The notes beneath the pieces are model-generated. The model saw nothing but the letters and a program-made list of their open reading frames with translations, was not told where the DNA came from and made no database searches. Of a stretch of 56,357 nucleotides of DNA, positions 5,086 through 54,570 are shown one piece after another. Each line of letters opens with the position of its first letter. The first letter of the stretch is position 1. Both the position numbers and the translations under genes were made by a program. Origin of the DNA: Chiloscyllium plagiosum (lineage: Eukaryota); the NCBI RefSeq assembly GCF_004010195.1, contig NC_057753.1, forward strand, positions 5,205,849-5,262,205. Reading direction: 5' to 3'.

Positions 5086-5765
5086 TTCCTCTGCTACCGC
5101 AAGACGTGCAAAACCTGTGCCCAACCCCCAACTTCTGTCCTAGGTCCCAAAGGATCCTTCCTCATCTGAAATAAATTTACCTGCGCTTCCACAAATGTCA
5201 TCTTCTATATCTGTTGCACCCGATGTGGTCTCCTCTACGTCAGGGAGACAGGGTGCCTTCTTGCGGATCGTTTCAGAGAACATCTCTGGGACACCCGCAC
5301 CCACCAACCCCACTGCCCTGTGGCTGAACACTTCAACTCCCACACACACTCCGCTGAGGATGTGCAGGTCCTGGGCCTCCTCCATCGTCAAACCCTAACC
5401 ACCTGACGTCTGGAGGAAGAACGCCTCATCTTCTGCCTCAGGACCCTGCAATCACACAGGATCAATGTGGATATCACCAGTTTCCTCATCTCCCCTCCCT
5501 TCACCTTATGCCAGTTCCAAGTTTCCAACTCGGCCCCGCCCTCTTGACCTGTCCATCGTCCTTCCCATCCATCTGCTCCATCCTCCTATCTGACATATCA
5601 CCTTCTCCCCCACCTTCATCTACGTCAGCTTTCCCAGCTACCTTCCTCCCAGTCCCAGTCCCAACCCCCCTCCCATTTCAGTCTCAGCCCCTGGCCCACA
5701 AGCCTCATCCCTGATGAAGGGCTTTTGCCTGAAACGTCGATTCTCCTGCTCCCTCAAATGTCTGC
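5086..5765 (+). mobile_element. Penelope-like element fragment: GIY-YIG region and terminal repeat
   Basis: FTCASTNVIFYICCTRCGLLYVRETG..RFREH..VAEHFN; hammerhead-like motif at 5712. Confidence 0.85.
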
Positions 5766-6021
5766 CCATGATGCAACTTTCAAGGAACTGTGTACCTATA
5801 GTCCTCTTTGTTCGACAGCACCACCTAGGGTCCTACCATTTACTGGATAGGTCCTGATTCATTTGGTGTTGAATATCATCAGCTTTTGAATGTGGAATAA
5901 AAAAACGTTTGTCTCAGGGGAAGGATTTCAATCGTTAGTGTGACAGGACAAGTACCAAGACATGCATTCACTGCATTGAGAATGTTCCAATAAACTAATG
6001 ATAGAAACTCCTTTCATCAAC

Positions 6022-6152
6022 AATTCCTGATGAAGGGCTTATGCCCGAAACGTCGATTCTCCTGCTCCTCGGATGCTGCCTGACCTGCTGTGCTTTTCCA
6101 GCACCCCACTCTCGACTCTGGTCTCCGGCATCTGCCGCCCTCACTTTCTCCC
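6022..6152 (+). mobile_element. Solo PLE 3' terminal repeat
   Basis: Same terminal repeat as 22560-22685. Confidence 0.8.
6023..6058 (+). ncRNA. Minimal type I hammerhead ribozyme motif (PLE family 2 exemplar)
   Basis: CTGATGA-A-GGGC-ttat-GCCC-GAAA-CGTC: intact core, 4-bp stem II, palindromic ACGT instead of stem III, GUC triplet. Confidence 0.75.
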
Positions 6153-6164
6153 CCTTTAATCAGT

Positions 6165-6500
6165 GACACGTACTGAGTGAGTGTGTTCTCGAGCACAGAC
6201 CGTGGAAAGAGCTTTAACTGGTTATGCTGACCTGGGAAAAAAAACACTCCATTCACAACGGGGGTGATATTGTACAAGTGTGTGTGTGTGTGGCTGAAAC
6301 TCCAACCAGTTATTCAATTTGTGGAGACTGAGGAGCTGGACGAAATTACAGAAACTGTGGGAAGGGATTCAGAAATCTGCGCACTGTGGAAATACATCAG
6401 TACAGAAACTGTTCACCTGCTCTGAGTGTCAGGAGAGATTCATTTGATCACAGCACCCACACCCCGACAGGCTGTTTGCCTGCTGTGTTGTGAGAGAAGT
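6165..6500 (+). pseudogene. Degenerate ZNF-exon fragment
   Basis: ctgagtgagtgtgttctcgagcacagaccgtggaaagagctttaac resembles 13452-13500 and 25157-25210. Confidence 0.45.
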
Positions 6501-6559
6501 AACGGATGGTCATGGAACCTGTATACAGTCTGATGAAATGATCACTTGAACCCAGAGTA

Positions 6560-7345
6560 GGCTGTCATTCGTGCGAACACGTTGATAGGGCATTTGTTCC
6601 ATGAGGCTTTTACAGAACATCCTCCATTATGGGCTTTTCACAGGTCTCTCCTCAGTAGCAACTTAGTGATGCACGATCGGTTTGGATAACTGAGTCAGTC
6701 CGTTCTCCATGCTGAATGGTCTCTCGCTAGTGAATTCGCTGGTGCACAGTAATCGGAGATGATCGCCTGAACCCCTGCGTACATGTCGATGGGACATCTT
6801 AACTCTGGACTGTTTACAGCCCTTCATGCAACACACAGGCATTTAAGAGTTCCTCATTGATTGTCTGATCAGGGGGGTTAGGGAGGGAAGGCTGTTGAAT
6901 GAGTGAATCCATTCCCACACTTGGAACAGATAAATCCAGTGTGATTACTTGACGAGTATCCAGATCAGAAAGGGAATTGCATCCCATTCCAAAGGGCCTG
7001 TACTTCCAGGGTTTTGCTGGTGTGCCTGAAACTCCACGGTGACAGAGGAGGTGATCGTTTGAAGGATCGTCCACAGATGATCTATGTTCAAAATCCAATG
7101 ATATTCAGGACTGATGGGTGTATGAATAGGAAGGGTTTGGAGGGATATGGCCTGGGTGCTGGCAGGTGGGACTAGATTGGGTTGGGACATCTGGTCGGCA
7201 TGGACGGGTTGGTCCGAAGGGTCTGTTTCCGTGCTGGACATCTCTCTGACTCTATGATGAATTGAGTGTTTCTGTCAAGTCTAAATATGATGTTTGGTTT
7301 GAGCTTTCAGGCTGCAAATAACTCCCTTTCCAATGCCCTGTGAAA
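6560..7345 (-). pseudogene. Ancient degenerate ZNF exon of the same family, minus strand (interrupted by CR1 tail ~7110-7255)
   Basis: Reverse complement gives ttcacag|ggcattggaaaggg...ctcaaaccaaacatca...ttgacagaaacactcaattcatca, homologous to 13245-13340, plus finger remnants such as CSKCGNGFTHS. Confidence 0.65.
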
Positions 7346-9057: not shown

Positions 9058-9530
9058 TCCATTTCCATCCATGTGTTTATCCAATGGTCATTTAAATGGC
9101 CTTAAAGTTGGCGAGTCTACTACTGTGGCAGAAGTGGGTACTGCAGATGCTGGAGATTAGACTCAAGATTCGAGCGGTACTGGAAAAGCACAGCAGGTCA
9201 GGCAGCATCTGAGGAGCAGCACAATCGACGTTTCGGGCAAAAGCCCTTCATCAGGAATAGCCTGATGAAGGGCTTTTGCCCGAAACATTGACTTTCCTGC
9301 TCCTCGGATGCTGCCTGACCTGCTGTGCTTTTGCAGTACCGCTTGAATCTTGAGTCTACTACTATTGCAGGCAGTGCATTCCACACACTTACGATTCTCT
9401 GAACAAAGAAACTACCTCTGACATCGGTCCTATACCTATCACCCCTCAATTTAAAGCTGTGTCCCCTCGAGCTTGCCATCACCGACCGAGGAAAAAGGAT
9501 GTCCACCCTATCTAACCCTCTGATTATCTT
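9057..9530 (-). mobile_element. CR1 LINE 3' fragment interrupted by a PLE palindrome
   Basis: IIRGLDRVD...RGHSFKLRG...WNALP; its tail appears to continue at 7615-7705. Confidence 0.75.
9132..9351. mobile_element. Inverted pair of PLE terminal repeats (family 2)
   Basis: Minus arm 9132-9258, plus arm 9261-9351; flanked by gagtctactact(g/a)t(g/t)gcag at 9113-9131 and 9352-9370. Confidence 0.85.
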
Positions 9531-9950
9531 TTTTGCATTGGAGAAACTGGTAGTGAGCTGCCCTCTTGAGTTAAAAAATACTGCAACAATACAAGACCTT
9601 AGTCTGACCACATTTGGAGTAATTGTGCCAGTTTTGGTCTCAGAATATTTACTTGCCATAAAGGGACTCCAACAAAGGTTTACTTGGTTGATACCAGGGA
9701 TTGTAGCAGTGTGCTATGAGGAGTGATTGGTTCAGTTGGGCCTGTATTCAATCAGGTTTATTAAAATGAGAGGGGATCTGATTGCAATGTACAAAATACT
9801 AACAAGGTTGGAGAGACTAGAAGCAGGAGGAATATTTCCCAAGTTGGGGAGTCCAGAGACAGGAGTCACAGTTGATGAGAAATGCTTTCTTCAACCTCTG
9901 GAATTTGCTACCACAGAGGTCTGCGGAGGTCAGGACACTGAGAAATTCAA

Positions 9951-10776
9951 AATTAAAAGTCACACAACACCAGATTATAGTCCAACAGGTTTATTTGGAA
10001 GCACTAGCTTTCGGGGCACTGCTCCTTCATCAGGTGGTTGTGGATTAGAATCAGTCTGACCATTGTGGCACAGACTGCCTCACACAGGGAGCTAACACCT
10101 TCAATACATTATCTGGGCCAACGTAACACCATTTGTTAATAGAGTCAGAGAGGTGTACAGCATGGAAACAGACCCTTCCGTCCAACCTGTCCGTGCCGAC
10201 CAGATATCCCAACCCAGTCTAGTCCCACCTGCCAGCACCCGGCCCATATCCCTCCAAACCCTTCCTATTCATATACCCATCCAGATGCCTCCACCACTTC
10301 CTCTGACAGCTCATTCCATACCCGTACCACCCTCTGTGTGAAAAAGTTGCCCCGTGGGTCTCTTTTATATCCTTCCCCTCTCACCCTAAACCTATGCCCT
10401 CTATTTCTGGACTCCCCGACCCCAGAGAAAAGACTTTGCCTATTTTACCCTATCTATGCCCCTCATAATTTTGTAAAGCCATAACATTTTTAAAAAGTTT
10501 TTCGATTTACATATGAAAGAACTGAAACCAACATGGTCATTCTAAAAGATGAGAGACTTAACAATCCAGGTCTTTTTCAATAAATAATTTCAGTTACATC
10601 ACGCTGTAAACCTTTGCTGTAAACTCTGTGTCTTACAATCTTATTCTCCACAACCACCTGATGAAGAAGCAGAACTCTGAAAGTTAGTGCTTCCAATTAA
10701 ATCTGTTGGACTATAACCTGGTGTTGTGTGATTTTTAACGTTGTACATCCCAGCCCAACACCGGCGTCTCCAAATC
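9951..10776. mobile_element. Inverted PLE terminal repeats (family 1) with nested CR1 3' end (10141-10478, minus)
   Basis: Short minus arm 9951-10045, long plus arm to 10776; hammerhead motifs at ~10002-10036 (-) and ~10658 (+); imperfect TSD gagaa(t)attcaa. Confidence 0.8.
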
Positions 10777-10889: not shown

Positions 10890-11085
10890 TAGAGACAAAA
10901 AAAAACTCCAGATGCTGGAATCCAAGGTAGACAAGCAGGAGAAAGCGAGGACTGCAGATGCTGGAGATCAGAGTCGAGAGTGTGTTGCTGGGAAAGCACA
11001 GCAGGTCAGGCAGCATTCGAGGAGCAGTAGAATCGATGTTTCGGGCATAAGCCCTTCATCAGGAAGTAGGAGGCTGGGAGAACAT
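10890..11085 (-). mobile_element. PLE terminal repeat (family 2) nested in a family-3 terminus
   Basis: Matches the 39092 and 18745 repeats; hammerhead motif ~11035-11062 (-). Confidence 0.7.
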
Positions 11086-11700: not shown

Positions 11701-12429
11701 ACTCTGTGATAATCCTCCCATTCTGCTATTGTGAGGAAGATATAAGGAATCTGCAAATCCTTCAACCCTGGCAACATCCTTGTAAATCTTTTCTGAACCC
11801 TTTCAAGTTTCACAACAAGTGCTGGCAAATGGGACTAGAGTAAAAGAGATGTATAGCACGGAAACAGACCCTTTGGTCCAACTCGTCCATTTTGACCAGA
11901 TATCCTAACCTATTCTAGTCCCATTTGCCAGCATTTGGCCCAGACCCCTGTAAACCCTTCCTATTCATAAAACCATCCAGATGCCTTTCAAATGTTGTAA
12001 TTGAATCAGCCTCCACCACTTCCTCTGGCAGCTCATTTCATAGGATGGCGAATTCTGGAATTCTCTACACCAGAGAATTATGAAGGCTAGGTGACTGAAA
12101 GTAATGAAAGAGGATGCAGATAGATTTTTTGAATGTCAAGGTGAGGATGGCTTTGAGGACACGGCAAAAAAAAAGTGGAGTTAAAGCCTGGGGCAGGGAG
12201 ACCTTGATCTTTTAAAATAGCTTGAGAGGATCAATGACCCAAGCCTGCTCCTATTTCCCTGTTCATTCCAACTCCCTGTGAAAGGAATTTGCAAACTCCC
12301 TCACTGTCAGTCCAGGATAAAATTCAAAAGAGCCAATTTTTTTTTTAATGGGTGGAAGTTGCTGTGCACAAATCCTCCTCTTCTAGCCCGCTGTCAAAGC
12401 AGTTTCTAATTGTGGGGTTGGGGAGCATG

Positions 12430-12745
12430 TTCCTATCTCAAGGTTTTGCCCTTTGTCCCTTTAAATGCCGCCCTCGCTCCTTCCAGGGGCAGCGATGCGC
12501 ATGCTTCGCTCCGCGGTCCCGTCCCGCCCCTTCATTGACTCCGATTGGTTGGAGGACCAGCGCTGTCGTCCAGGCCAGGCCCGCCCCCTTCCCCTTACCC
12601 CTACCTTTTGGTCCCGCTTCTCCGTCAATGATCCAAACGCCGCCCCGTGCGGGAAAGGGCATGCGCAGCACGGAATTCCGCCCTGCCCGACACTGCGCAC
12701 GCGCGGTCGCCATTTTAGCAGCTTCCTCAAGTCGAGGTCGGGGTG
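12430..12745. promoter_or_regulatory. CpG-island promoter of unit A, probably bidirectional
   Basis: CpG-rich in a CpG-poor background; NRF1-like TGCGCATGC (12496) and GCATGCGCA (12659), GC boxes CCCGCCCC (12523), inverted CCAAT (12544), YY1-like CGCCATTTT (12708); candidate splice donor GTGAGG at 12743. Confidence 0.75.
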
Positions 12746-12844
12746 AGGGGGGTATTGTCGCAACAGGAATTGCTGGAAAGATCTCTGCAGGTCTGGCAGC
12801 GTCTGTGCAGAGTAAATGTTTCGCGTCCAAGAGAGTCTCGTCTC

Positions 12845-13030
12845 CAGTTTGGTTTGATTTGTTACTGTCACGTGTGTTGGGGTACAGTGAAAAGTGTTGT
12901 CTCATGTGTAAGTGCAACAGGGTGACAGAAGAGAGTGCAGGATACAGTGTTACAGCTGCAGAGAGAGAGATAAATATAAACATGAACATGAACATTAAAG
13001 AAGTCCATTCAAAAGCCTGATAACAGCAGC
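12845..13030 (-). mobile_element. Non-LTR retrotransposon 3' tail (possibly Rex/Babar-like) in the intron of unit A
   Basis: Absent from B and C introns; resembles the plus-strand segment 38760-38900; clade is a guess. Confidence 0.4.
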
Positions 13031-13210
13031 TTACGTTTGGTCAGAATGAGTTGGAAATTATTATCCAGTGTTTTATTGGGATTTCAATCCAATGGGGATG
13101 ATGGCACAGAGAGAGTCTGCGCGCGCGTTATGGGGATTCATAACTTGGAGGGAACCAAGGGGACAACACACCACAAAAACTGTAATTGTCTGCTTGCGAT
13201 TTCTCTACTT

Positions 13211-13251
13211 CACTGACAGTGAAGGGTTTTTATCATCTTCTTCTGTTACAG
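13211..13251 (+). promoter_or_regulatory. Branch point, pyrimidine tract and splice acceptor of the ZNF exon (paralogous AGs at 24959-24960 and 43907-43908)
   Basis: cactgac...tcatcttcttctgttacag|gg; ACTGAC and CAG|GG are conserved in all three units. Confidence 0.65.
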
Positions 13252-13616
13252 GGATTAGAAGAGGAGGGTTTACATCGTGAAACCCAAACAGAACATCAGG
13301 TCAAAGTCTGACAGAGTCGCACCATTCGTCAGGAGCTGAACATCACTGCCCTCTGATTGTGGGAGGAGAAGGAATTGTTTCTCTGGTTTGTCTGAGGGTT
13401 TAAATTTCAAACACTGGTGGGACTGGAAAAGCACTGGGATGCAAGTGCGCCTGAGTGAGAGTGTTCCAGGAAACTGACTTTGGAAACAGCTTTCGCTAGT
13501 TACCCAGACTGAACAGACATTGCATCGTTTAAAGCAGGAGAAACTGCACGTGTTCAGTGTCTGGATAAGGATTGAACTAAACCTTCAGTCTGGAGGGACA
13601 CAAAGATACTGGCACC

Positions 13617-14750
13617 ATGGAGAAACCATGGAAATGTGTGGAGTGTGGAAAAGGATTCAGATTTCCATCCTGTCTGGAAGTTCACTGGCGCAAACACACT
13701 GGGGAGAAACCATTCGCCTGTTTTGAATGTGGGAAGATATTCACTCAGTTATCCAACTTAAATCAACACCAGAGAACTCACACTGGAGAGAAACCATTTC
13801 CCTGCCTTGAGTGCGGAAAGAGATTCACTCAGTTATCCAACTTAAATCAACACGTGAGAACTCACACTGGTGAAAAACCGTTTATCTGCCCTGAATGCAA
13901 GAAGGGATTCACTCAGTTATCTAACTTAAATCAACACCTGAGAACTCACACTGGTGAAAAACCATTTATCTGCATTGAGTGTGGAAAGAGTTTCACTCAA
14001 TTATCCCACTTACATCAACACCAGAGAACTCATGCTGGAGAAAATCTGTTCACCTACACTGAGCATTGGAAGACATTCACTCAGTTATCCCACTTAGATT
14101 CACACCATGGAGCTCTCGCAGTAGAAAAACTGTTTACCTGCTCTGAATGTGGGAAGGGATTTGCTGATTCATCCACTTTGCAAGTACACCAGAGAACTCA
14201 TACAGGAGAGAAACCATTCACCTGCTTTGTGTGCGAGAAGAGCTTCACTCAATTATCCCACTTAAATCAACACCAGAGAACTCACACTGGAGAGAAACCA
14301 TTTTCCTGCCCTGAGTGCAGGAAGAGATTCGCTCAGTTATCTCACTTAACTCAACACCAGAGGATTCACACTGGTGAAAAACCATTTAGCTGCCCTGAAT
14401 GCAAGAAGCGATTCACTCAGTTAGCAAACTTACACCAACACCAGAGAACTCACACTGGAGAAAAACCATTCATCTGCCCTGAGTGCGGTAAGAAATTCAC
14501 TCAGTTATCCAACCTGCAATCACACCGGGGAACTCACACTGGAGTAAAAGCGTTCGTCTGCTCTGACTGCGGGAAGGGATTTGCTCAGTCATCCACCTTA
14601 CGTGTACACCAGCGAACTCACACCGGAGAAAAACCGTTCACTTGCCTTAAGTGCGGGAAGAGTTTCACCCAGTTATCCAACTTACAGCAACACCAGAGGA
14701 CTCACTGTAAGCCGCGCATTGTCAGGAAGGCGAGATCACATCCGGAGTGA
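13617..14750 (+). CDS. C2H2 zinc-finger protein, paralogue A (377 aa; 13 finger units, 12 canonical and 1 degenerate; no KRAB/SCAN/BTB visible)
   Basis: Uninterrupted ORF of CxxC-x12-HxxxH repeats with TGEKPF linkers; strong Kozak gcaccATGg; ends RSHPE*. Confidence 0.92.
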   Translation: MEKPWKCVECGKGFRFPSCLEVHWRKHTGEKPFACFECGKIFTQLSNLNQHQRTHTGEKPFPCLECGKRFTQLSNLNQHVRTHTGEKPFICPECKKGFTQLSNLNQHLRTHTGEKPFICIECGKSFTQLSHLHQHQRTHAGENLFTYTEHWKTFTQLSHLDSHHGALAVEKLFTCSECGKGFADSSTLQVHQRTHTGEKPFTCFVCEKSFTQLSHLNQHQRTHTGEKPFSCPECRKRFAQLSHLTQHQRIHTGEKPFSCPECKKRFTQLANLHQHQRTHTGEKPFICPECGKKFTQLSNLQSHRGTHTGVKAFVCSDCGKGFAQSSTLRVHQRTHTGEKPFTCLKCGKSFTQLSNLQQHQRTHCKPRIVRKARSHPE

Positions 14751-15520
14751 GAGAGAGAGAGTCTGAGTGAGTATATAATTTGTTGAGTTTATAGGCAGTC
14801 TTGGAATTTGGTGCAGAGGTGCTTTTTGCTTGTGTTCTGACTTGTTGTTTGTAAGGTCTTTTTAAAATGATCAATTGCAGCCCCAAGATCTGGGTCCAGC
14901 ACAACACAGTGACATCACATTAAAGCCATAACTTCATTGGTTGGTGAAAGCTACTAATGTGACTATCTGTCAAAGGTTACTTGCAGATTGAAGATAAATA
15001 GGGTAAATATTTACAGGTTACAAACTAAAAGATCAGTAGAAAATTTGTAAAAATCAAATTAAGAATGAATTAAAAAGAGGTGCAGAGCCAGGTGATGTAT
15101 TGTACCTGTATGATGTGGGAGCTGGAAGACCCCATTTCGTATCACAATGACCACATCTGTAGCAAGTGCTGGTTGGTTGAGGAACTGCGGCTCAGAGTTG
15201 ATGAGCTGGAGTCTGAGCTTCGAACACTATGACACATCAGGCAGGGGGCGAGAGTTACCTGGATGTTGTCTTTACAGAAGGCGTTACACCCCTTAGATTA
15301 ATAACCTCAAATTCAGGGACAGGAGGGTGTGACGGGGATGCAGGAGGTAGTGCAGAAGGAGCCTCAGTCCTTGCCGAATAGGTTTGAAATTCTTGCTCCC
15401 TGTGTGGATGACGAACGGCTGTATGGAGAATGAGCAAACTGAGTGCCGTGGTGCAAGTAGCTACTCAACATGGAGAAGGAAAGAGAAGTATAGTTGCAAT
15501 CAAGGATTGTACAGTCAGGA

Positions 15521-16044
15521 TTTGGAGATGCCGGTGTTGGACTGGGGTGTACAAAGCTAAAAATCACACAATACCAGGTTATAGTCCAACAGGTTTAATA
15601 GGAGGCACTAACTTTCGGAGTGCTGCTCCTTCAGGTGGTTGTGGAGTATGAGTTTGTAAGACACAGAATTTATAGCAAAAGTTTACAGTGTGATATTATT
15701 CAAATTATATATTGAAAAAGACCTGGATTGTTTAAGTGTCTCATCTGTTAGAATGACCATGTTGGTTTCAGTTCTTTCATATGTAAATCGCAAAACTTCC
15801 TTTAAAAGTTACATTCGCAAGTGAACTTTAACAATTGGCGTCATGTTAGCCCAGATAATGTATAGAAGGTGTGCGCTTCCCTGTGTGAGAATGTCTGTGC
15901 CACAATGGTCAGACTGATTCTCATCTCAAAAATGGATTTACAGAATCTTACATGGACTCATGCATTTTTTGAGCAAAGTAAAATGTAATTCTACAAGTAC
16001 AGATTCACCCCACAAACGTATGTGACAAAACTCCCACACGTGTC

Positions 16045-16087
<43 letters not shown>

Positions 16088-16554
16088 GAGGTGAATCTGT
16101 ACTCACAGAATTACATTTTATTTTGCTCAAAAACTGCATGAATCCATGTAAGATTCTGTAAATCCATTTTTTTTTTAGTTTAAAATCAGTCTGACCACTG
16201 AGCAACAGACAGTCTCACACAGAGAAGCTCACACCTTCGATACATTATCTGGGCTAACATGACACCAGTTGCTAAAGTTCACTTGAGAATATAACTTTTA
16301 AAAAACGTTTTGCGATTGACAGATGGAAGAACTGAAACCAACATGGTCATTCTAACAGATGAGAGACTTAACAAACAATCCAGGTCTTTTTCAATATATA
16401 ATTTCACTTTTATCACACTGTAAATTTTTGCTATAAATTCTGCATCTTACAATCTTATACTCCACAACTACCTGATGAAGGAGCAGCGCTCCAAAAGCTA
16501 GTGCTTCCAAATGAACCTGTTGGAATATAACCTGGTGTTGTGTCATTTGTAACT
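15521..16554. mobile_element. ~1-kb PLE palindrome (family 1) with central (CA)n
   Basis: Arms ~15550-16020 and ~16082-16556 are reverse complements; TSD ttgta(c/t)agtcagga at 15507-15520 and 16555-16568; empty site in unit B near 28730. Confidence 0.9.
16054..16081. repeat. (CA)n microsatellite
   Basis: Direct observation. Confidence 0.95.
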
Positions 16555-17494
16555 TTGTATAGTCAGGAGAATAGACATTGTTCTATGTGGGCATGATCAA
16601 GAGTCCTGAAGGCTGTGTTACCTGTGTTCCAGATATCTCCTCTGGGCTATGGAGGGAATGGGAGGGGAAAGATCCAATTATCATGGTCCACCTAGGTACT
16701 GACGATAGAGGTTAAGAGAGGAAAGAGATTCAGCTGAGGGAAGTAAAATTTAATTCTACAAGTACAGATTCACCCCACAAACTTTGGGGGTTAGATTAAA
16801 AAGCAGAAACAAAAAGTAATCTCTGGATTACTAACTGAGCCGCAAGCTAATTGGCACAGTCTCTGCAAGATTAAAGAGGTAAAGGTGTGGCTCAAAGATC
16901 AGTGTGGGAAAAACAGGTTCATATTTCATGGGCAGTTGGCAACAGTACTGGGAAAGGGGAGAGCTGTTCTGATGAGCAAGGTCCACCGGATCTGGCTGGG
17001 ATCAGAGTCCTTGTAAATTGCACCACTTAGGGTCAAGCATGAGGCTTTAACTAAATAGTGGGGTGTGGGTACACTTCCGTGGAAAATTAAGGAAAACGTT
17101 AATGGTGGAGATGGCTCAGCAGAAGTTACGGAAGTTTCCAGAACGAGTCATGGGACTGAGAGTATAGAAAGGATTTGGAATCTAACTTCAGGCCCAGCAG
17201 ATAAAGCGGCAGCTATGAGAAGGGAGGCAGGCAGTGCAGGACTGAGGGTGTTGTACCTGTATACAAAACAAGGTAAATGAGATTGGAGCGCAGATTGACA
17301 TTGACAGGTGATTTCGTGACTGTCACAGAGACATGACTCCAAAAGGATCAGGGCTGGGAACTAAATATCCAAGAATACACATCCTATGGAAAGGATATGC
17401 GAATATGCAGAGCAGGCTTGATCGTAAGAAATAAAATCGATAAGGAGATGTGATAGAGACTTGGAGGTCATGGAATCTGTGTGGGTAGACTTTT

Positions 17495-21865: not shown

Positions 21866-21869
21866 TATG

Positions 21870-25325: not shown

Positions 25326-27969
<2,644 letters not shown>

Positions 27970-40932: not shown

Positions 40933-42189
40933 GCATCTATGGGGAGAGTGGCTGCGAACCAAGGAGTGATGAAGGATGTGGTCCTTGCTGAAGGCAGAGA
41001 GGGATAGGGAGAGGAAGATGTTCTGGGTGGTGGGGTCAAATTGGAGTAGGCAAAAGTGTTTGAGGATAATACATTGAATGTAGAGACTAGTGGGATGGAA
41101 AGTGAGGACAAGGGGGACCCTGTCTTTATCATGTTTGGAGGGGGCAGGTTTAGAGCAGTGGAGCAGGGAATGGAAGGGGTGTGGTGGAGGGCTGCCTGGA
41201 TAGCAGAGGGGGAAATGCACGTTGTTTAAAATAAGTGGACATCTCGGACTTTGGGAGTGGAATGTTTCCTCATCAGAGCAGATATGATTGATTTGGAGGA
41301 TTTGGGAAAAACGAGATGGCGTGTTTGCAGGATTTGGGGTGGGAGGAGGTGTAGTCCAGATAGTTATGGGGAGTCTGTGGCTTTATTGTAAATGTCAGTC
41401 CGCAAACTGTCACCAGAGATGGAAAAGGAGAGGTCAAAACAAGGGGAGGGAGGTGTCCAACATAGACCTGGTGAATTTGAGGGCAGGTTGGAAGTTGTTG
41501 GCGAACTGAATGAACTGCTCCATTCAGGGTGGATGCAGGATGCAGCACTGATGCAGTCATCGATGAAATGGCAGAAGACCTGGGGAACCATACTGTTCGA
41601 TGTAGCTGACAAAGGACTGTTCGATGTAGCTGACAAAGGAGTAGGCATTAGGTAGGACCCATGCAAGTGCTCATGGCCACTCCCTGGATTTGGAGGAAAT
41701 GGGAAGAGTTGAACAAAAAGTTTTTGAGGGTAAGGACTAATTCAGCGAAGCGAAGGTGGGTATTGATGGAGAGGAGTGGGATGGGTCTGTTGGAGAGGAA
41801 GAAACTGAGGGCCTACAGGCAATCCTTGTGGGGACTGGACGTGTATAAGGACTGCACGTCCATAGTGAAGATGGAGTGCTGGGTTTGGGGCAGGGAAGAG
41901 ATGAGGGTGTGGGAAGTGCCTGGACCGAGGGGGAGAAAATGAAGTCAAGGTAGGAAGAAGTGAGTTCAGTGGGGCAGGGGCAAGTGGATATGATGGGTTG
42001 GCCAAGTTAGTTGGGCTCATTGGATCTTGGGGAGCAGGGAGAACCAGGCAGTGCAGGGCTGGGGGCTATGAGATTGGAGGCGGTGGAGGGGAGATCATTA
42101 GAGGTGCTGAAGTCACAGACTCTGTCGGCACTGGTGGCCTGATGGGTCATGGTGGGGTTGTGGTCAAGGGGGAGGTACAACGTGGCATA

Positions 42190-42770
42190 CCTTCCTGAGC
42201 AGTTCCACTTCTTGTGTTTACTTCCTCCCTCCTCCCTGTCAAAGGGAGTCCAGACACAGTTTCCAGATGAAGCAGCAATTTACCTGCACTTCAGTCAATC
42301 CAGCCTATTATATTTACTGCTGATATGTAGTGGCCGGTACGTTCTGGAGGCAAGTGCAGACTGGGTGACTGCTTTGCAGAACACCAATGTTCTGTCTGCC
42401 TATATGACCCTGAACTTCTGGTAGCCTCTATTGGGTATGCTGCAATGAAGCTCAGCTAAAACTGGAAGAAGGGCACCTCATCTTCCACTTGTAAACCCTG
42501 CAGCCTCTGGACTCAATATTGAGTTGAACGATGTTCAGGCTTGAGCCCCTTCTCTCGTGTCCTTATTCCAAACCCCACACCCCAAGCCGAGTCATCACGA
42601 GTTGTTACCTACCACAAACAACCCACTGTCACCTACTGACAGTACCCATCATTAAGTATTCATTCTGCCAGGCTGACCATCACTCGCCCTCTGTTGGATC
42701 TTCTCCCTCTCTGGGCCACATCATCTATCACTTACTCCTCCGTCACTCCGTCTTTAGTGTATACGCCAAC
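42190..42770 (+). mobile_element. Older PLE GIY-YIG and terminal-repeat fragment (remainder ~43150-43255)
   Basis: FQMKQQFTCTSVNPAYYIYC-like frame; opposite orientation to 38620-39050 PLE remnants. Confidence 0.6.
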
Positions 42771-42937
42771 CTTTTAAAAGGCATCTGGATGAGTATATGA
42801 ATAGGAAGGGTTTGGAGGTATATGGGCTGGGTGCTGGCAGGTGGGACTAGACTGGGTTGGGTTATCTGGTCAGCATGGACAAGTTGGACCGAGGGGTCTG
42901 TTTTCATCCTGTACATCTCTATGACTTTCCCAGGAAT

Positions 42938-43135
42938 CGGTTTAGCTCAGTTGGCTGGATTGCTGGTTTACCAACCAGTATGATGCCAGCAGTGCAGGTT
43001 CAATTCCCATCACTGATTTGAGATTACCATGAAAGACTCTCCTCAACTTCTTCCCTTGCCTGAGGTCTGGTGGCAGTCAGGTTAAACTATCACCATTTGC
43101 TTCTTTCTAATGACAGAGAAGCCCTCTATGGTGAC
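42938..43135 (+). mobile_element. Second-family tRNA-derived SINE
   Basis: tagctcagttgg A box, ggttcaattcc B box; homologous to 1700-1895. Confidence 0.65.
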
Positions 43136-43334
43136 ACAAGAACCTTTTTCCACCTGCAGTCAGTTCTGAAGGGTCATCACACTGGGAACGATTAATGTGC
43201 TTTCTCTCAACAGAGGCTGCCAGACCTGCTGAATTTTTCCAACACTTCGTTTTTGCTGCCCTTCTAACCCGTTGGTTAAAGCAATTTCCAGTTGCAAGAT
43301 CTGCAGTTTCTAATTGGGGTCTTGGGGATGGGGA

Positions 43335-43690
43335 GCATGTTCCTGTCTCAAGGTTCCGCCCTTTGTCCCTTTAAATCCCACCCTCGGTCCTTCCAGCTCC
43401 AGCGCCGGCGATGCGCATGCTTCGCTCCGCGGTCCAGTCCCGCCCCTTAGTTGACTCCGGTTGGTTGGAGGACCGGCTCTGCCGCACGGTCCTCCAGACC
43501 CGCCCCCTCCTTCGCTATTGGCCGGCCTCCTCCGTCAATCAACCCGCGCTTCTCTCCACCCCAATCCACACCCAACCCGGGCCCCGGCGGACATGCGCAG
43601 CACGTGTTTGCTCCCCGAACGGCTGTGCACATGCGCGGCGCCCATTTTAGCAGTTGCCTCAAAGTGGGGTCAGGGTCTTGTGTCCAGCTG
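43335..43690. promoter_or_regulatory. CpG-island promoter of unit C
   Basis: Paralogous to A and B; NRF1-like motifs, GC boxes, ATTGG and a YY1-like CCATTTT. Confidence 0.72.
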
Positions 43691-44096
43691 TAACCATTAG
43701 TCAGAATGGGTTGGAGATAATTATCCAATATTTTATTGGGATTTCACCCAGGAATGAGGGTGGGAGAGAGAAAGAGAGAGTGTGGGGGACGGGGAATTAT
43801 TATTTGGAGGGAACAAGAGAGGAAAATACACCACAGAAACTGGAATTGTCTGTTTAATGAATTCTCTGCCTCACTGACAGTGAACTGTTTGGTTATCTCC
43901 TGTCACAGGGACTAGAAGAGGAGGGTCACATCAAGGAAACCCAAAACAAAGCATCAGGTCAAGATCTGACAGAGTCACTCCATTCATCAGGAGCTGAAAA
44001 TCACTGCCCTCTGACTGTGGACAGAGAAATCTTCGTCTGTTTTGTCCTGAGGGGGAAGATTTCAAACTAATCCTCCCTTACAAAAACACTGGCACC

Positions 44097-44648
44097 ATGT
44101 AAACGTGTGGAGTGCGGTAAGGAATGAAGATTTCCATCCAGGCTGGAAGCTCATCGGCACAATCAGACTGGAGAGAAACCAATTATTTGCTCCACGTGTG
44201 AGAAATGATTTGCTTGTTCATGCAGTTTCAAGGTACACCAGAGACATCACACCGGGGAGAAGTGGTTCATCTGCACCACGTATGGTAAAAGGCTCATTAA
44301 TTTTTGCGATTTTTGTGAAAGTTCACACTGGGGAGAAACCATTCACCTGCTCTGAGTGTGGGAAGGTGTTTGCTCAGTCATCTGAATCACACCAGCAAAC
44401 CCTCACTGGGGAGAAACTGCAGAAAGGGTTTCACTCACTCATCCCACTTAGGTTCACACCAGAGAGTTCACACTCGACAAATACTCTTCCCGTGTCCTGA
44501 TTGCAGGAAGAGATCGTCAGTTATCCAACTGACATCAACATCAGGGAACTCACACTGGAGAAAAACCATTCACCTGCTCTGAGCGTGGGAACAAATTTGC
44601 TTAGTCTTCCAAATTGTATGAGCACCAGAGAACTCTCACTGAAAAAAA
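44097..44648 (+). pseudogene. Decayed 5' fingers of paralogue C
   Basis: Aligns to B from 25326 onward ([19 protein letters not shown]) but carries ATG-TAA, deletions and stops. Confidence 0.8.
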
Positions 44649-46865
44649 ATGTTCACCTGCTGTGACTGCGGGAAGGGATTCAGTCGGTCATCCACCTTAC
44701 GTGTTCACCAACGAATTCACACAGGAGAAAAACCATTCACCTGTCCTGAGTGTGGGAAGGGATTCACTCAGTTAACAAACTTAGAATCACACCTTAGAAC
44801 TCACACCGGAGAGAAACCGTTCCCCTGTCCTGAGTGTGGGAAGGGATTCGCTCGCCTCTCCAACTTACATCAACATCAGAGAATTCACACAGGAGAAAAA
44901 CCATTCACCTGTCCTGAGTGTGGGAAGGGATTCAGTCAGTTAACGAACTTAGAATCACACCATAGAACTCACACCGGAGAGAAACCGTTTCCCTGTCCTG
45001 AGTGTGGGAAGAGATTCACTCGCGTATGCAACTTACATCAACACCAGAGAATTCACACAGGAGAAAAACTATTCACTTGTCCTGAATGCGGGAAGGGATT
45101 CACTCAGTTAGCAAACTTAGAATCCCACCATAGAACTCACACTGGAGAGAAACCGTTCCCCTGTCCTGAGTGTGGGAAGAAATTCACTCGCGTATCCAAC
45201 TTACAGCAACACCACGAAGCATACCATAGAGAAATACGGTTCACGTGCTCTGATTGTGGGAAAGGATTCACTTATTCTTCCACGTTACGTCGGCATCAGA
45301 GAACTCACACTGGAGAGAAGCCGTTTGCCTGCTCTGAATGTGGAAAGGGATTCGCTCAGTTAACAGACTTGCACCAACATCAGGGAATTCACGCTGGTGA
45401 AAAACCATTCAACTGTCCTGACTGCGGGAAGGGATTCACTCAGTTCGCGAACTTAGAAGCACACCAGAGAACTCACACCGGAGAGAAACCGTTCCCCTGT
45501 CCTGAGTGTGGGAAGAGATTTATTCGGTTATCCACCTTACAGCAACACCAGGGAACACACAACAGAGAAATACGGATCGCCTGCTCTGACTGTGGGAAGG
45601 GGTTCACTTATTTATCCAGTTTACTTAGGCACCAGAGAACTCACACTGGAGAGAAACCATTCACGTGCTCCAACTGCGGGAAGGGATTCGCTCAGTTATC
45701 CCAATTACATCAACACCGGCGAACTCACACTGGGGAAAATCCGCTTCTCTGTCCGGAGTGTGGGAAGAGATTCACTCAATTATTCGACTTACGTCAACAC
45801 CAGAGAACCCACACGGGAGAAAAACCATTGGCCCGCTCTGAGCGTGGGAAGGGATTTGCTCATTCTTCCAAGTTACGTGAGCACCAGGGAACTCCGAGTG
45901 GAGAGAAACCGTTCACCTGCTCTGACTGCGGGAGGGGATTCACTTATTCTTCCACTTTATTGAGGCACCAGCGAACCCACACTGGGGAGAAGCCTTTCAC
46001 CTGTCCTGAGTGCATGAAGAGTTTTACTCAGTTAGCGAACTTACATTCACACCAGAGAACTCACACTGGAGAAAAACTGTTCCCCTGTCCTGAATGCGGG
46101 AAGCGATTCGTTACATTATCCAACTTACAACAACACCAGAGAACTCACACTGGGGAAAAGCCATTCACCTGCTCTGACTGTGGGAAGGGATTCGCTCAGT
46201 CATCTACCTTACGTGTACACCAACGAACTCACACGGGAGAAAAACCATTCACCTGCCCTGAATGTGGAAAGGGATTTGTTCGGTGTTCCAACTTGCATCA
46301 ACACCAAAGAACTCACGCTGGAGAGAAACCATTCACCTGCCCTGAATGTGGAAAGGGATTTGCTCAGTTATGCAACTTGCGTCAACACCAAAGAACTCAC
46401 ACGGGAGAAAAACCATTCACCTGTCCTGAATGTGGAAAGGGATTCACTCACTTATCCAACTTGCATCAGCATCAGAGGACTCACACTGGGGAGAAACCAT
46501 TCACCTGTCCTGAATGCGGAAGGGGATTCACTCAGTTAGTGAAATTAGAATCCCACCACAGAACTCACACCGGAGAGAAACCGTTCCCCTGCCCTGAATG
46601 CGGGAAGGGATTCAGTCAATTAGGGAACTTGCGTTCCCACCAGAGAACTCACACTGGAGAAAAGCCATTCACCTGCTCTGACTGCGGGAAGGGATTCACT
46701 CAGTCATCCAAGTTACGTGTACACCAGCGAACCCACACTGGAGACAAACCGTTCTCCTGCCCGGAGTGCAAGAAGAGTTTCGCTCAGTTACCTCACTTGC
46801 ATTCCCACCGGAGAACTCACGGTAAACTGCGCACTGTCAGGAAGGGGAGATCACATCCGGAGTGA
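44649..46865 (+). CDS. C2H2 zinc-finger protein, paralogue C (738 aa; 26 finger units, one lacking both Cys)
   Basis: 2.2-kb open frame of TGEKP-linked fingers with the same RSHPE* C-terminus as A. The start codon is uncertain because the ancestral ATG at 44097 is followed by TAA. Confidence 0.85.
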   Translation: MFTCCDCGKGFSRSSTLRVHQRIHTGEKPFTCPECGKGFTQLTNLESHLRTHTGEKPFPCPECGKGFARLSNLHQHQRIHTGEKPFTCPECGKGFSQLTNLESHHRTHTGEKPFPCPECGKRFTRVCNLHQHQRIHTGEKLFTCPECGKGFTQLANLESHHRTHTGEKPFPCPECGKKFTRVSNLQQHHEAYHREIRFTCSDCGKGFTYSSTLRRHQRTHTGEKPFACSECGKGFAQLTDLHQHQGIHAGEKPFNCPDCGKGFTQFANLEAHQRTHTGEKPFPCPECGKRFIRLSTLQQHQGTHNREIRIACSDCGKGFTYLSSLLRHQRTHTGEKPFTCSNCGKGFAQLSQLHQHRRTHTGENPLLCPECGKRFTQLFDLRQHQRTHTGEKPLARSERGKGFAHSSKLREHQGTPSGEKPFTCSDCGRGFTYSSTLLRHQRTHTGEKPFTCPECMKSFTQLANLHSHQRTHTGEKLFPCPECGKRFVTLSNLQQHQRTHTGEKPFTCSDCGKGFAQSSTLRVHQRTHTGEKPFTCPECGKGFVRCSNLHQHQRTHAGEKPFTCPECGKGFAQLCNLRQHQRTHTGEKPFTCPECGKGFTHLSNLHQHQRTHTGEKPFTCPECGRGFTQLVKLESHHRTHTGEKPFPCPECGKGFSQLGNLRSHQRTHTGEKPFTCSDCGKGFTQSSKLRVHQRTHTGDKPFSCPECKKSFAQLPHLHSHRRTHGKLRTVRKGRSHPE

Positions 46866-47560: not shown

Positions 47561-47599
47561 AATGGGGAAATCTGGTTGCTTTTTGTCTGTGTCTTTTGT

Positions 47600-49197: not shown

Positions 49198-50253
49198 AGT
49201 TCTAGGGTGCAGCGGTAATGGCAGGATGATTGGGGTAATTCGGGACGCACAGCAGAAATTCATCCCAAGAGTCACGGAAGCTGAATTACCCACACGGTCA
49301 GATACAAAATGGAGAACTGTGGGTTCTCTGAACATTTGTGATGTTATTGCGATAATCCTCCCAATTGACCCGTGCCTCAATTTACTGCTCCCGAGCCTCA
49401 GATATTCCGAAGACACCGTTTGTTTTATGTAAAGCAGGAATTACTATTCATTCCAAACAAAAGGCCCCAGACAAAATTCTAGGAACGGTGATGATACAAA
49501 TTCTTAAAACCACAAACTAATAGTCTGGATTATTGGCCCAAGTTCCTTCTCCTCGCGCAAGGCGGTACATTAGCCTGACAGACAAGACAAAGGGTTGGCC
49601 GTGGATATTAGGTGTCAGGTTAAAGATAGAAAGAGAGAGAGGTGGTAAGCTAGCACGAGGGGACATAGCTTTAAATTGAGGGATGATAGATATTGGACAG
49701 ATGTCAGAGGTAGTTTCTTTACTCAGAGAGTAGTACGGGCATGGAATGCACTGCCTACAACAGGAGTAGGTTCACTAACTTTAAGGTAAAAGCAAGGAAT
49801 GTAGATGCTGGAAACCAGAGTCTAGATTAGAATGGTGCTGGAAAAGCACAGCAGGTGAGGCAGCATCCCAGGAGCAGGAAAAATCGACGTTTCGGGCAAA
49901 AGCCATTCATCAGGAATAGAGGCAGAGTGCCGGCAGAGTGGAGAGATAAATGAGAGGGGGGGGTGGGGCTGGGGAGAAGGTAGCTAAGAGTACAATAGGT
50001 GGATGGAGGTGGCGATGCAGGTGTTAGGTCAGAGAGGAGGATGGAGCGGATGGATGGGAAGGAGGATTGGCAGGTAGAACAGGTCATGAGGATGGTGCTG
50101 AGCTGGAAGGTTGGAACTGGGTAAAGTGGGGGAGGGGAAATGAGGAAACTGGTGAAGTCCACATTGATGCCCTGTGGTTGAAGTGTTCTGAGGCAAAAGA
50201 TGAGGCGTTCTTCCTCCAGGCGTCAGGTGGTGAGGGAGCGGCGGTGGAGGAGG

Positions 50254-50507
50254 NNNNNNNNNNNNNNNNNNNNNNNNNNNNNNNNNNNNNNNNNNNNNNN
50301 NNNNNNNNNNNNNNNNNNNNNNNNNNNNNNNNNNNNNNNNNNNNNNNNNNNNNNNNNNNNNNNNNNNNNNNNNNNNNNNNNNNNNNNNNNNNNNNNNNNN
50401 NNNNNNNNNNNNNNNNNNNNNNNNNNNNNNNNNNNNNNNNNNNNNNNNNNNNNNNNNNNNNNNNNNNNNNNNNNNNNNNNNNNNNNNNNNNNNNNNNNNN
50501 NNNNNNN
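50254..50507. other. Assembly gap (254 N)
   Basis: Run of n. Confidence 1.
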
Positions 50508-50670
50508 GATGGAGGTGATAGGTCAGAGAGGAGGGTGGGGGAAGGTAGCAAAGAGTACACTAGGTGGATGGGGATGGAGGTGATAGGTCAGAGAGGAGGG
50601 TGGGGGAAGGTAGCAAAGAGTACAATAGGTGAATGGGGGTGGGGATGGAGGCGATAGGTCAGAGAGGAGG
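50508..50670. repeat. ~65-71-bp tandem repeat of a PLE terminal-repeat segment
   Basis: gatggagg(t/c)gataggtcagagaggagg recurs at 50508, 50573 and 50644. Confidence 0.85.
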
Positions 50671-51172
50671 TTGGGAACTCTTTAGATACTGAGTGAACTG
50701 GTTGGCTCCTATCCCCCCCATCAGTCTCCTTTCTTTCCCCACCCACCCTTTCTACCCCAATTCTCCTTTCTCCCACTTGCTCTTCCTTTTCGGAAAGGAG
50801 GTGTGGGGGGAATTTAGAACACTACTGATCAGCTGTGCTTTTCCAGCATCACTCTAATCGAGACTCTTGCCAACTTTAAGGGCATTTGAATGGTCATTGG
50901 AAAGGCATATGGATGAGAATGGAATAGTGTCGGGTAGATGGGCTTCAGATTGGTTTCACAGGTCGGCGCAACATCGAGGGCTGAAGGGCCTGTACTGTGC
51001 TGTCATGTTCTGTGTTCTCTGAGCTGCGTGGCTGGATTCAGTGGATTTGAATCTGATGCTGATGCGACATCTGCCAAAGCCCACTGAGCAGCTCCATGAC
51101 AGCTTGGCGAGGAAAGTGCTGAAAGCTGTGAAAGAGTCACCGTGTTGGGTTGGGTGGTGACGGGGAACCCCG

Positions 51173-51805: not shown

Positions 51806-52334
51806 TTGGGGTTGTTAAAACCCGGGCTGGTCAGGAAAGCCGGTCTCGGGTGAGCGTCGCTGGAGTTTCTTTGGGAAGTGTTGGACCCACGATAGCTGGG
51901 ACGATGATGAGCAAACCCCAAGGAGCCTGGGCGAGAACTGTAGCAGGAGATTGCTGGATTCGAAAGCCTGACGTGCAGGTCAACTTGGGGGAAGCAACGA
52001 CAATTGAAGGAGAAAGGAAAAGCAGCAGCGGCACCATGTAAGTGATTGCTTTTTCTGATTTTTGCACAAGCATTGCCTTCTCGCTACGTATTTCCTAAAG
52101 AAAAGGAAACTTTCGATACTGAGTGAACTATCCCCCCATCAGTGTCCTTTCTTTCCCCACCCAACCTTTCTACCCCAGTTCTCCTTTCTCCCACTTGCAC
52201 TTCCTTTTCGGAAAGGAGGTGCGGGGGGAAATTTAGAACACTACTGACCATCTGGGCTGGCTTAGTACGGTCTGGTGGCACTAAAGAGCCTGGATGTCTC
52301 CAGAGGAACCTGGAAAAGACCACAGGAAATCTTA

Positions 52335-52600
52335 ATAACATAGAACAATACAGCGCAGAACAGGCCCTTCGGCCCTCGATGTTGCGCCGACCTGTGAGCT
52401 ATTCTCAGCTTGTCCCCCTACACTATCCCCAAATCATCCATGTGCTTATCTAAGGATCGTTTAAATCTCCCTAATGTGGCTGAGTTGACTACCTTAACAG
52501 GTAGCGGCATTCCACGCCCTTACCACTCTCTGCGTAAAGAACCTGCCTCTGACATCTGTCTTAAATCTACCACCCCTCAATTTGTAGTTTTGCCCCCTCG
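52335..52600 (-). mobile_element. CR1 LINE 3' end
   Basis: aacatagaacaatacagcgcagaacaggcccttcggccc tail. Confidence 0.85.
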
Positions 52601-52842
52601 TATAAACAGAGTGAAGATGTCAAGGACCTAAGCTCAGTTCAGTCAAATCGTCTGTACAGGTTGCCATTTTGTTTAGTCTTTCGGCATGCATAGTAACTAA
52701 TTTTGGTTTTTGTTTCAATATGCAAGTAAAGATTTTAAATCTTTTCAAAAGAAAGAGAATTATAACGAGGAGGTGAGACCCGCGCCTATTGCGAGGTGAT
52801 GGGAATAAATTCCCTCTTCGCTTTGGTTGGCTTTCTGCAGTC

Positions 52843-53113
52843 GAATAGTGTGGGGCTGGAAAAGCCCAGCCGGTCAGGCAGCATCCGAGGAGCAGGAGAG
52901 TCATTCCCAGCTACCTTTCCCCCCCCAGCCCCAACCCCAACCCTCTCCCATTTATCTCTCAGCCCCCTTGGCCCACAAGCTCATTCCTGATGAAGAGTTT
53001 ATGCTCAAAACATCGACTCTCCTGCTCCTCGGATGCTGCCTGACCGGCTGTGCTTTTCCAGCACCACACTCTTCGACTCTGATCTCCTGTGTCTGTAGTG
53101 CTCACTTTCTCCC
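52843..53113. mobile_element. Inverted PLE terminal pair inserted in the env signal-peptide region
   Basis: Short minus arm and long plus arm with a decayed hammerhead near 52987. Confidence 0.8.
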
Positions 53114-53674
53114 AGTTGGCTCACTGCAATATGAAGTGACCGTGAGTGGGCGACAGAGTTGTTTGTCTGTAATGGGGGTAAGCATGAATATGGTATGGTG
53201 AATCAGAAATTAAACTAACAACAAAAATCCCTTCTGTTGCAGCAAACTGATGACGTGGTAACTGCTGCAGTGCCTGTGTTTTCTCCTGCCTTGAATGACA
53301 CGAGATCTACCATCACCTACACAATCTCACCACAGGATACAGTCTAGAGGATGGAGCCATCATAATAGCAACTGTACGCAAAATAGTTGGAATAGTTTAC
53401 CAGGTGAAATGTGAACTTTGCTGAACCTCACTTGCACATGTAACAACTTATGTTCCCAATAACTCCAGGGAACAGGAACGAAATATGCCCCTGTTACTGT
53501 ATGATGTGGAATCGCATTTCTCCCCCCACCGACCCCCTCAATTATCTGTGAAAACTAGATGACAATAACTGCACCTCACCATTGACCTGAGATAAGACTA
53601 TCAGAAGGCAGTGCCTAAAGTAGCTGACATGAAAACTGGTGTAAGATAGGGCTTTGAAATAGTGCTTGGCTGTT

Positions 53675-54570
53675 ATGTCTCCTTCCTATCGGAAAGATGT
53701 TGTTAAACTTGAAAGGGTTCAGAAACTAATTACAAGCATGTTGCCTGGGTTGGAGAATTTGAGCTATAGGGAGAGGCTGAACAGGCTGTGCTGTTTTCCC
53801 TGGAGGCTGAGGGGTGACCTTTTAGAGGTTTACAAAATTATGAGGGGCGTGGATAGGGTAAATAGGCAAAGTCTTTTCCCTGGTGTTGGGGAGTCCAGGA
53901 CTAGAGGGCATAGGTTTAGGTGAGAGGGGAAAGATATAAAAGAGACCTAGTGGGCAACTTTTTCACACAGAGGGTGGTACGGGTATGGAATGAGCTGGAA
54001 ATGTGTTGCTGGAGAAGCGCAGCAGGTCAGGCAGCATCTAGGGAACAGGAGAATCGACGTTTCGGGCATTAGCCCTTCTTCAGGAATGAGGAAAGTTTGT
54101 CCAGCAGGCTAAGATAAAAGATAGGGAGGAGGGACTTGGGGGAGGGGCGTCGGAAATGTGATAGGTGGAAAAAGGTCAAGGTGACTCCCCCAAGTCCCTC
54201 CTCCCTATCTTTTATCTTAGCCTGCTGGACAAACTTTCCTCATTCCTGAAGAAGGGCTAATGCCCGAAACGTCGATTCTCCTGTTCCCTAGATGCTGCCT
54301 GACCTGCTGCGCTTCTCCAGCAACACATTTCCATCTCTGATCTCCAGCATCTGCAGACCTCATTTTCTCTTATGGAATGAGCTGCCAGAGGAAGTGGTGG
54401 TGGCTGGTACAATTGTAACATTTAAGAGGCATTTGGATGGGTATATGAATGGGAAGGGTTTGGAGGGATATGGGCTGGGGTGGGCTGGCAGGTGGGACTA
54501 GATTAGGTTGGGATATCTGGTCGGCATGGACGGGTTGGACTGAAAGGTCTGTTTCCATGCTGTACTCTAT
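53675..54570 (+). mobile_element. CR1 LINE 3' end interrupted by a PLE palindrome
   Basis: SPSYRKDVVKLERVQ...WNELPEEVV. Confidence 0.9.
53998..54370. mobile_element. Young inverted PLE terminal pair (family 2)
   Basis: ~145-bp reverse-complement arms; perfect TSD tatggaatgagctg at 53984-53997 and 54371-54384. Confidence 0.92.

Follow-up and report, generated by a model that had tools for sequence, protein, structure and literature searches.

The 56,357-nt window analysed here, from Chiloscyllium plagiosum (contig NC_057753.1), carries three paralogous C2H2 zinc-finger (ZNF) genes, all on the plus strand and each with a CpG-rich island ahead of it, together with 23 sites, on both strands, that hold a minimal type I hammerhead ribozyme motif or a decayed copy of it. 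These motifs are best explained as passengers in the pseudo-long terminal repeats (pLTRs) of endonuclease-bearing Penelope-like elements (PLEs), which mostly survive here as decayed stumps and are most likely inert towards the ZNF genes (probability roughly 0.87). The identity proposed in an earlier note on this stretch, i.e. minimal type I hammerheads in PLE terminal repeats, is supported by PLE remnants, by the anatomy of the insertions, by loci outside the window and by the published description of the class (PMC4209133). Its further proposal, that intact copies could self-cleave transcripts through the ZNF cluster, is not upheld: the intact copies lie outside the gene spans, the paired ones are sequestered in hairpins and the published activity is low or protein-dependent.

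All 23 sites listed by the earlier note were recovered, and the motifs that it attributed to family 1 (GGAGC/GCTCC, AGCT, CUA) and family 2 (GGGC/GCCC, ACGT, GUC) are as described. Positions given here are those of the core start (C3), whereas the minus-strand coordinates of the note are cleavage ends; the minus-strand cores start at 9254, 10033, 11062, 15634, 18872, 18907, 23095, 39215, 40548, 49913 and 54083, and the copy noted at 5712+ has its C3 at 5711. Searched with a descriptor that combines the core, NUH and a stem II of 4 bp or more, the window gave 11 matches, whereas 300 dinucleotide shuffles averaged 0.027 and never exceeded 1; with the palindrome added, the figures were 9 and 0.003. 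The core CUGANGA ... GAAA ... UH is present at 15 of the 23 sites, and six of these sites (6027+, 9254-, 18872-, 20978+, 54083- and 54246+, every one family 2) are fully intact: besides all core bases, they retain stem II, G10.1-C11.1 included, the palindromic tetramer and two base pairs of stem I. The cuts predicted after 6054 and after 24232 are correctly placed; of the two copies, 6027+ is fully intact and 24204+ is not (G10.1-U wobble).

Among the 21 anchored copies, the pair 10.1-11.1 that closes helix II is G-C in 17, G-U in three and broken in one, and the short helix I has C-G as its first pair in 19 and U-A or A-U as its second in 17. One extra base after A9 is visible in the aligned copies. 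They have no helix III of their own and carry a palindromic 15.2-16.2, this pair being C-G in 10 of 14 family-2 copies, G-C in 4 of 5 family-1 copies and U-G in 2 of 2 family-3 copies. The palindromic tetramer was said to persist, but in family 3 it is non-Watson-Crick in both listed copies. Family 2 consists of two subfamilies (2a and 2b), distinguished at N7 and downstream. Further copies, absent from the earlier list, came from profile searches: core-less stubs (20050-, 20055+, 21893-, 50824+ and 52903-) and, near 39875-, a family-3 copy in decay. The same searches matched an older family faintly at 43172+ and 12829-.

Covariation of the stems had also been claimed, and it exists between families, at 5 of 9 pairs. 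From one family majority to another, both partners are changed in the pair 15.2-16.2 (C-G versus G-C), in stem I pairs 2 (U-A versus A-U) and 3 (C-G versus G-C) and in stem II pairs 3 and 4, which suggests that the source elements were under selection. The claim fails within families, as a single two-sided cell was found in 152 (21 of the 23 sites, two core-deletion sites being excluded): 96 of the 112 family-2 cells are unchanged, 12 broken, three wobble and one two-sided, and the 40 family-1 cells comprise 33 unchanged, three broken, four wobble and no two-sided. The model search suggested earlier had a mixed outcome. The descriptor scan is far above chance, but the curated Rfam hammerhead models gave 0 matches in the window at gathering score and none among the 16 matches at E up to 10, probably because the motif lacks a closed helix III. 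The exact family-2 pattern had 0 matches in metagenome contigs. The silence of the Rfam models and the non-independence of copies within a family could favour a chance look-alike within an abundant repeat; this is scarcely credible, given that three families keep the core, that the five pairs above changed on both sides and that distant PLEs carry the motif at the equivalent location.

The evidence supports the motif-bearing repeats being pLTRs of endonuclease-bearing PLEs. PLE protein remnants are found upstream of family-2 and family-3 copies and within a family-1 palindrome, and the core lies 227 nt (5711+), 85 nt (22568+), 232 nt (49913-) or 205 nt (39875-) from the end of a remnant of the GIY-YIG endonuclease (EN); at 39875-, reverse transcriptase (RT) remnants extend further upstream of GIY-YIG. 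One protein, named from Chiloscyllium punctatum, was found for a GIY-YIG remnant, and the remnants align to protein P0001, for which no relative was found in viral contigs. The window pieces score below the Pfam GIY-YIG cutoff, which 3 of 5 relatives reach. The remnants show the hallmark of endonuclease-bearing PLEs, i.e. an RT followed by a C-terminal GIY-YIG, with two cysteines between the motifs and two histidines. A CX2-5CxxC motif in the RT-EN linker is found at about 5089-5112, in P0001 and, as a pattern, in 95 of 151 fetched proteins; this motif is that of the Neptune and Nematis clades (bioRxiv 2021.04.23.441226), and the window elements would thus fit either of them by their linker zinc (Zn) finger. 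The minus-strand RT-thumb/linker piece in the palindrome 22975-24291 is matched by 18 of the 151 proteins, without the GIY-YIG part. At 23539-23750 (-), this piece is open, contains a 63-nt direct duplication and is joined to the 3' untranslated region (UTR), GIY-YIG being skipped. Protein P0002 is a PLE RT-EN protein with N-terminal C2H2 zinc fingers (a fusion or a gene-call artefact).

The association of motif and endonuclease extends beyond this window. Among the best 80 of 515 PLE-encoding metagenome stretches, 46 include the EN end and 39 at least 400 nt downstream of it. The motif lies 110-169 nt after the EN match on the sense strand in 12 of these 39 and on the antisense strand in none; several of the 12 loci are near-identical, so that they do not represent 12 independent families. 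One outside locus (L002) carries a direct hammerhead pair about 3 kb apart (947 and 4013), with a near-complete PLE between two pLTRs, and another (L013) carries an inverted pair, at 1789 (-) and 3959 (+).

In our grouping, the 23 sites collapse to about 15 insertions. All nine head-to-head pairs have one short and one long arm, the latter about 30 nt longer, with arm ends at about 80-97 nt (short) and 120-125 nt (long; one aligned to 139) from the core start. At junctions picked from our own alignments, 7 of the 9 pairs have a flanking direct repeat with a score of 8 or more, a level reached by 2 of 72 mismatched junction pairs and by 2.0% of 989 random ones; the pairs 10033-/10658+ and 39215-/39584+ score 6. 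Seven further candidates score 11.5 and 10 in two cases, both spotted by eye before scoring, and 4-5.5 in five. The 15519-16559 insertion has an empty paralogous site in the 3' region of ZNF gene 2, near 28730-28745, where the 14-bp repeat occurs once. This layout matches the published arrangement of an inverted pLTR plus tail: a 31-bp tail on one end with a target duplication (PMC3846280), a 30-40 bp tail at one end (bioRxiv 2021.04.23.441226) that was tied to two reverse-transcription start sites, both target strands being cut and extended (PMC11167929), and opposite-strand motif pairs 100-700 bp apart (PMC4209133). At the junctions 15507/16555, 22962/24289 and 53984/54371, the target duplicate and the short end of the element overlap over 3-5 identical bases, suggestive of microhomology-based priming at that end. 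Two family-2a copies run directly, in the same orientation, into the tail of another family (10891-10941 (-) into family 3, 22692-22726 (+) into family 1), possibly by template switching or nested insertion; a single-event origin of these family-2 copies was rejected, their duplication scores (5.5 and 5) not exceeding the control.

The following model can be drawn for the origin of these copies. In source PLEs, the motif lies in the terminal repeat, about 85-230 nt after the GIY-YIG frame, and would have been under selection. Judging from published work, two RNA copies would pair through the palindromic tetramer and so form helix III, leading to a cut after position 17, probably with the assistance of the element's protein. 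Target-primed reverse transcription would then lay down 5'-truncated ends, mostly as the head-to-head pairs observed, giving one short end, another about 30 nt longer and a target duplication of 10-16 bp. After insertion, the copies decay like the neighbouring DNA in the small sample at hand, and they most likely have no role for the ZNF genes.

The short palindromic units could otherwise be a non-autonomous family of their own, similar to short interspersed elements (SINEs) or retrozymes and copied whole, instead of fresh PLE stumps. Several copies do have a common 5' start 4-6 nt ahead of the core and both long family-1 palindromes lack the GIY-YIG part, but arm lengths and centres vary from one insertion to the next (sizes 141 to 1317 nt), four copies continue directly into GIY-YIG sequence, and no tandem array of intact units exists in the window, where the sole tandem duplicate is broken in its core. 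Such a family is therefore improbable.

Within families, decay of the passenger copies looks neutral. The two arms of seven pairs, whose differences arose mostly at or after insertion, differ at 8 of 79 core positions and 23 of 320 downstream ones (p=0.36), the core thus being unprotected in this small sample.

Another alternative is that some intact copies act on host RNA: a sense copy within a read-through or 3'-extended ZNF transcript would dimerise and be cut, in cis for 5711+/6027+ or in trans with other repeat transcripts. Several observations weigh against the passenger account, some of them in favour of this alternative. The window contains no full-length PLE, the junctions of the duplication test came from our own alignments, its two extra pairs having been noticed before they were scored, and 6 of 23 sites are fully intact. 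Among 7 copies folded with 200-nt flanks, 6027+, 11062-, 18872- and 20978+ form stem II with a probability of 0.98-1.0 (0.47 for 49913-, 0.01 for 5711+). The solo intact copies 6027+, 18872- and 20978+ reach 0.98-0.99 in a 401-nt context, and the folding model indicates that they could fold if transcribed. When 24 copies are pooled, counting both arms of pairs (which are non-independent) and subfamily variants, non-CpG departures from the family majority amount to 6 of 245 in the core and 68 of 1119 downstream (p=0.02), a hint of extra conservation; CpG sites show no difference (7/39 versus 6/28). Moreover, 5711+ and 6027+ have a common strand and tetramer. On the other side, a minimal hammerhead needs a same-strand partner, and these two copies are the only close ones (316 nt).

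Location and folding nevertheless argue against an action on host RNA. Not one of the 23 sites falls within the span from a ZNF island to the coding end, and the six intact copies are 3-7 kb outside. If gene 1 has a long 3' UTR, the 15519-16559 insertion might lie inside it, but G12 is lost from 16472+, the sense copy of this insertion and the sole one in the 3' region common to genes 1 and 2; 24204+ lies upstream of the island of gene 2, within a 541-bp hairpin. Fifteen copies were folded in context. Stem II has a probability of 0.0 in each of the 8 for which the fold included the whole inverted pair (40554+ and 39584+ among them), and even the local fold lacks it in 39584+ and in three family-1 copies. 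For 6027+, the predicted active-like dimer reaches -10.7 kcal/mol against -25.4 kcal/mol for the best cofold, in a model that excludes tertiary contacts. Published activity is none as a monomer and low as a dimer or trimer (PMC4209133), and a lizard element is not cleaved without its protein, its cut site coinciding with no RNA-seq read end (PMC11167929). Cleavage of host RNA by these copies is thus very unlikely. A self-contained, type III-like fold from the tandem 18907-/18872- (18844-18923) was also rejected (-6.1 versus -11.5 kcal/mol, pair probabilities 0.0).

The 5' starts of the stumps are clustered. By-eye grouping places the start of 5 of 12 family-2 insertions, from both subfamilies, 4-6 nt before the core (6027+, 9254-/9262+, 18907-, 20978+ and 40554+), a pattern resting on small numbers; the opposite arm stops at -1 at three junctions, and the start of arm 52903- is no more than about 3 nt away from the cut site. 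Copies that retain upstream sequence have, at -4 to -6, a word that we take to resemble the initiator consensus. One tentative and rather doubtful reading is that the RNA starts at this word, 4 nt before the core, the ribozyme being the 5' end of the transcript and cleavage clipping off a 32-nt capped leader. RT would initiate within the repeat, at either of two sites that are about 30 nt from each other, and run off the capped end, where fold-back or second-strand joining would make junctions pile up at -1 and at -4 to -6. Leader clipping would act as a concentration-dependent off switch and not as release from a precursor, and a stump that starts at -4 would derive from an uncut template, the rare case of 52903- from a cut one. 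A genome-wide tally of stump boundaries would then be a cheap read-out of cut versus uncut RNA templates, which bears on the role of weak ribozymes in PLE transposition. The word is not evident by eye in 20 outside-locus motifs, which weakens this reading, and the start pattern would be no different with a short non-autonomous master or with an endonuclease that cuts at ATT (PMC11167929). Palindromes at pLTR 5' ends have been noted (PMC3846280), and the Penelope of Drosophila virilis has an internal promoter in its pLTR, with a start farther from the hammerhead (PMC2377424).

The surroundings of the ZNF genes are made of long interspersed element (LINE) and other repeat fragments, among which the PLE insertions are distributed (Table 1). 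The C2H2 array of gene 2 is frame-broken over 25285-27969 and the beginning of that of gene 3 is interrupted at 44051-44640; the final 200 nt of these two genes are 97.6% alike, through recent conversion or duplication, or sequencing errors. Sequences at 12750-12835 (-) and 43155-43290 (+), at or beside the islands of genes 1 and 3, faintly resemble an older, fourth pLTR-like family.

Table 1. ZNF genes and PLE-derived insertions in the window (hammerhead copies are named by core start and strand).
Feature	Coordinates	Strand	Details
PLE 3' end	5083..5766	+	Linker Zn finger and GIY-YIG remnant 5083-5484, then 3' UTR and family-2a hammerhead
Hammerhead at 5711	in 5083..5766	+	Core intact, G10.1-U wobble; element cut off downstream
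Family-2a pLTR stump with tail	6008..6152	+	Intact motif 6027-6054; begins about 4 nt ahead of core, behind a decayed mini-palindrome
Family-2a head-to-head pair	9141..9353		9254- long, intact; 9262+ short, palindrome broken; target-site duplication score 8
Family-1 head-to-head pair	9943..10776		10033- short, 10658+ long; other repeat in middle; duplication score not above control
Family-2a copy 11062-	10891..11080	-	Palindrome broken; family-3 tail fragment directly after
ZNF gene 1	12300..14750	+	CpG-rich promoter-like island; C2H2 array 13581-14750
Family-1 palindromic insertion	15519..16559		15634- long, 3-nt core deletion; 16472+ short; 14-bp duplication
Family-2b insertion	18749..18946	-	Intact 18872-; 35 nt from it, 18907-, a partial copy in tandem without G12; inverted arm with internal deletion; 14-bp duplication
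Family-2 head-to-head pair, absent from the earlier note	19991..20131		Truncated past core, no hammerhead left; 16-bp duplication with 2 mismatches
Solo family-2b copy	20974..21070	+	Short end; intact motif 20978-21005; no target duplication found
5'-truncated PLE 3' end	21845..22726	+	Remnant of thumb, linker and GIY-YIG up to 22483, followed by decayed hammerhead 22568+ and a family-1 tail fragment; 21849-21893 is an inverted stub
Young family-1 palindrome	22975..24291		Two 541-nt arms, 98.5% alike; long 23095- without G12, short 24204+ with a 10.1 wobble; 12-bp duplication
PLE RT-thumb/linker piece	23539-23724	-	Inside palindrome 22975..24291
ZNF gene 2	24300..27969	+	Island; C2H2 array split across several frames
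Family-3 head-to-head pair	39085..39675		39215- long, cut-site deletion; 39584+ short; duplication score not above control
Decayed 5'-truncated PLE	39780..42258	-	RT about 40759-42258, GIY-YIG 40071-40490; decayed family-3 hammerhead near 39875
Family-2b head-to-head pair	40464..40675		Nested in PLE 39780..42258; 40548- short, core deletion; 40554+ long, stem I lost; 12-bp duplication
Faint GIY-YIG remnant and older, decayed fourth repeat family	42258..43290	+	GIY-YIG 42258-about 42540; repeat near 43172; the two probably belong together
ZNF gene 3	43200..46865	+	Island; C2H2 array 44643-46865
Family-2a insertion across N gap	49777..50881		49913- long, G10.1 lost; EN end 50145-50252; 50824+ a short, inverted stub; 10-bp duplication
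Family-2a head-to-head pair	52840..53111		52903- short, starts about at cut site; 52987+ long, G12 lost; duplication score 9
Youngest family-2b palindrome	53992..54369		Arms 153 nt, 99% alike; 54083- and 54246+ intact; perfect 14-bp duplication

The window copies are additional members of the class of PLE minimal hammerheads already described in 2014 (PMC4209133). They share with it the conserved core, the extra base between A9 and 10.1, the G10.1-C11.1 pair, the palindromic 15.2-16.2 and the short helix I, as well as the pLTR location, a predominance of solo copies left by truncated elements, opposite-strand pairs and several families per genome. Stem II has 4-5 bp here, whereas it has 7-8 bp in the Schistosoma families of that work, which, in the part available, names fishes, coelacanth, Xenopus and reptiles but not sharks. 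As such hammerheads have been known since then to be massively abundant in animals, the gain at the level of the class is small; the window rather shows neatly how PLE insertions are built: their two ends are fixed, targets are duplicated and, in one case, the empty site survives in a paralogue.

Short non-coding PLE-end repeats with type I hammerheads are also known as non-LTR retrozymes, which have been reported in one chondrichthyan genome (PMC7229834; bioRxiv 10.64898/2026.07.22.740005). As these sources present them, retrozymes are head-to-tail tandem arrays with a hammerhead per unit, whereas the copies studied here are dispersed and head-to-head. At least two consecutive tandem units with complete hammerheads, by which retrozymes are recognized, were not found in the window, its one duplicate (18907-/18872-) having a first core without G12.

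The insertions resemble published ones of endonuclease-bearing PLEs (PMC3846280; bioRxiv 2021.04.23.441226), with which they share head-to-head inverted copies, a tail at one end, junction palindromes and short duplications. They differ in being mostly truncated to 140-1300 nt, in having duplications of 10-16 bp versus 8-10 bp in the rotifer examples, and in their fixed junction just before the hammerhead, which does not appear in the consulted portions of these two works. The Anolis Poseidon element PAc (PMC11167929) likewise carries a pLTR hammerhead. The elements of the window differ from Poseidon by the linker Zn-finger motif of Neptune/Nematis (bioRxiv 2021.04.23.441226) and, unlike PAc, have no conserved open frame starting in the hammerhead, such a frame being open for 37 codons in 6027+ and stopped in 54246+ and 18872-. 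The two RT start sites described for PAc would fit the two classes of ends seen here, and its cleavage and extension of both target strands would fit the two-armed insertions (PMC11167929).

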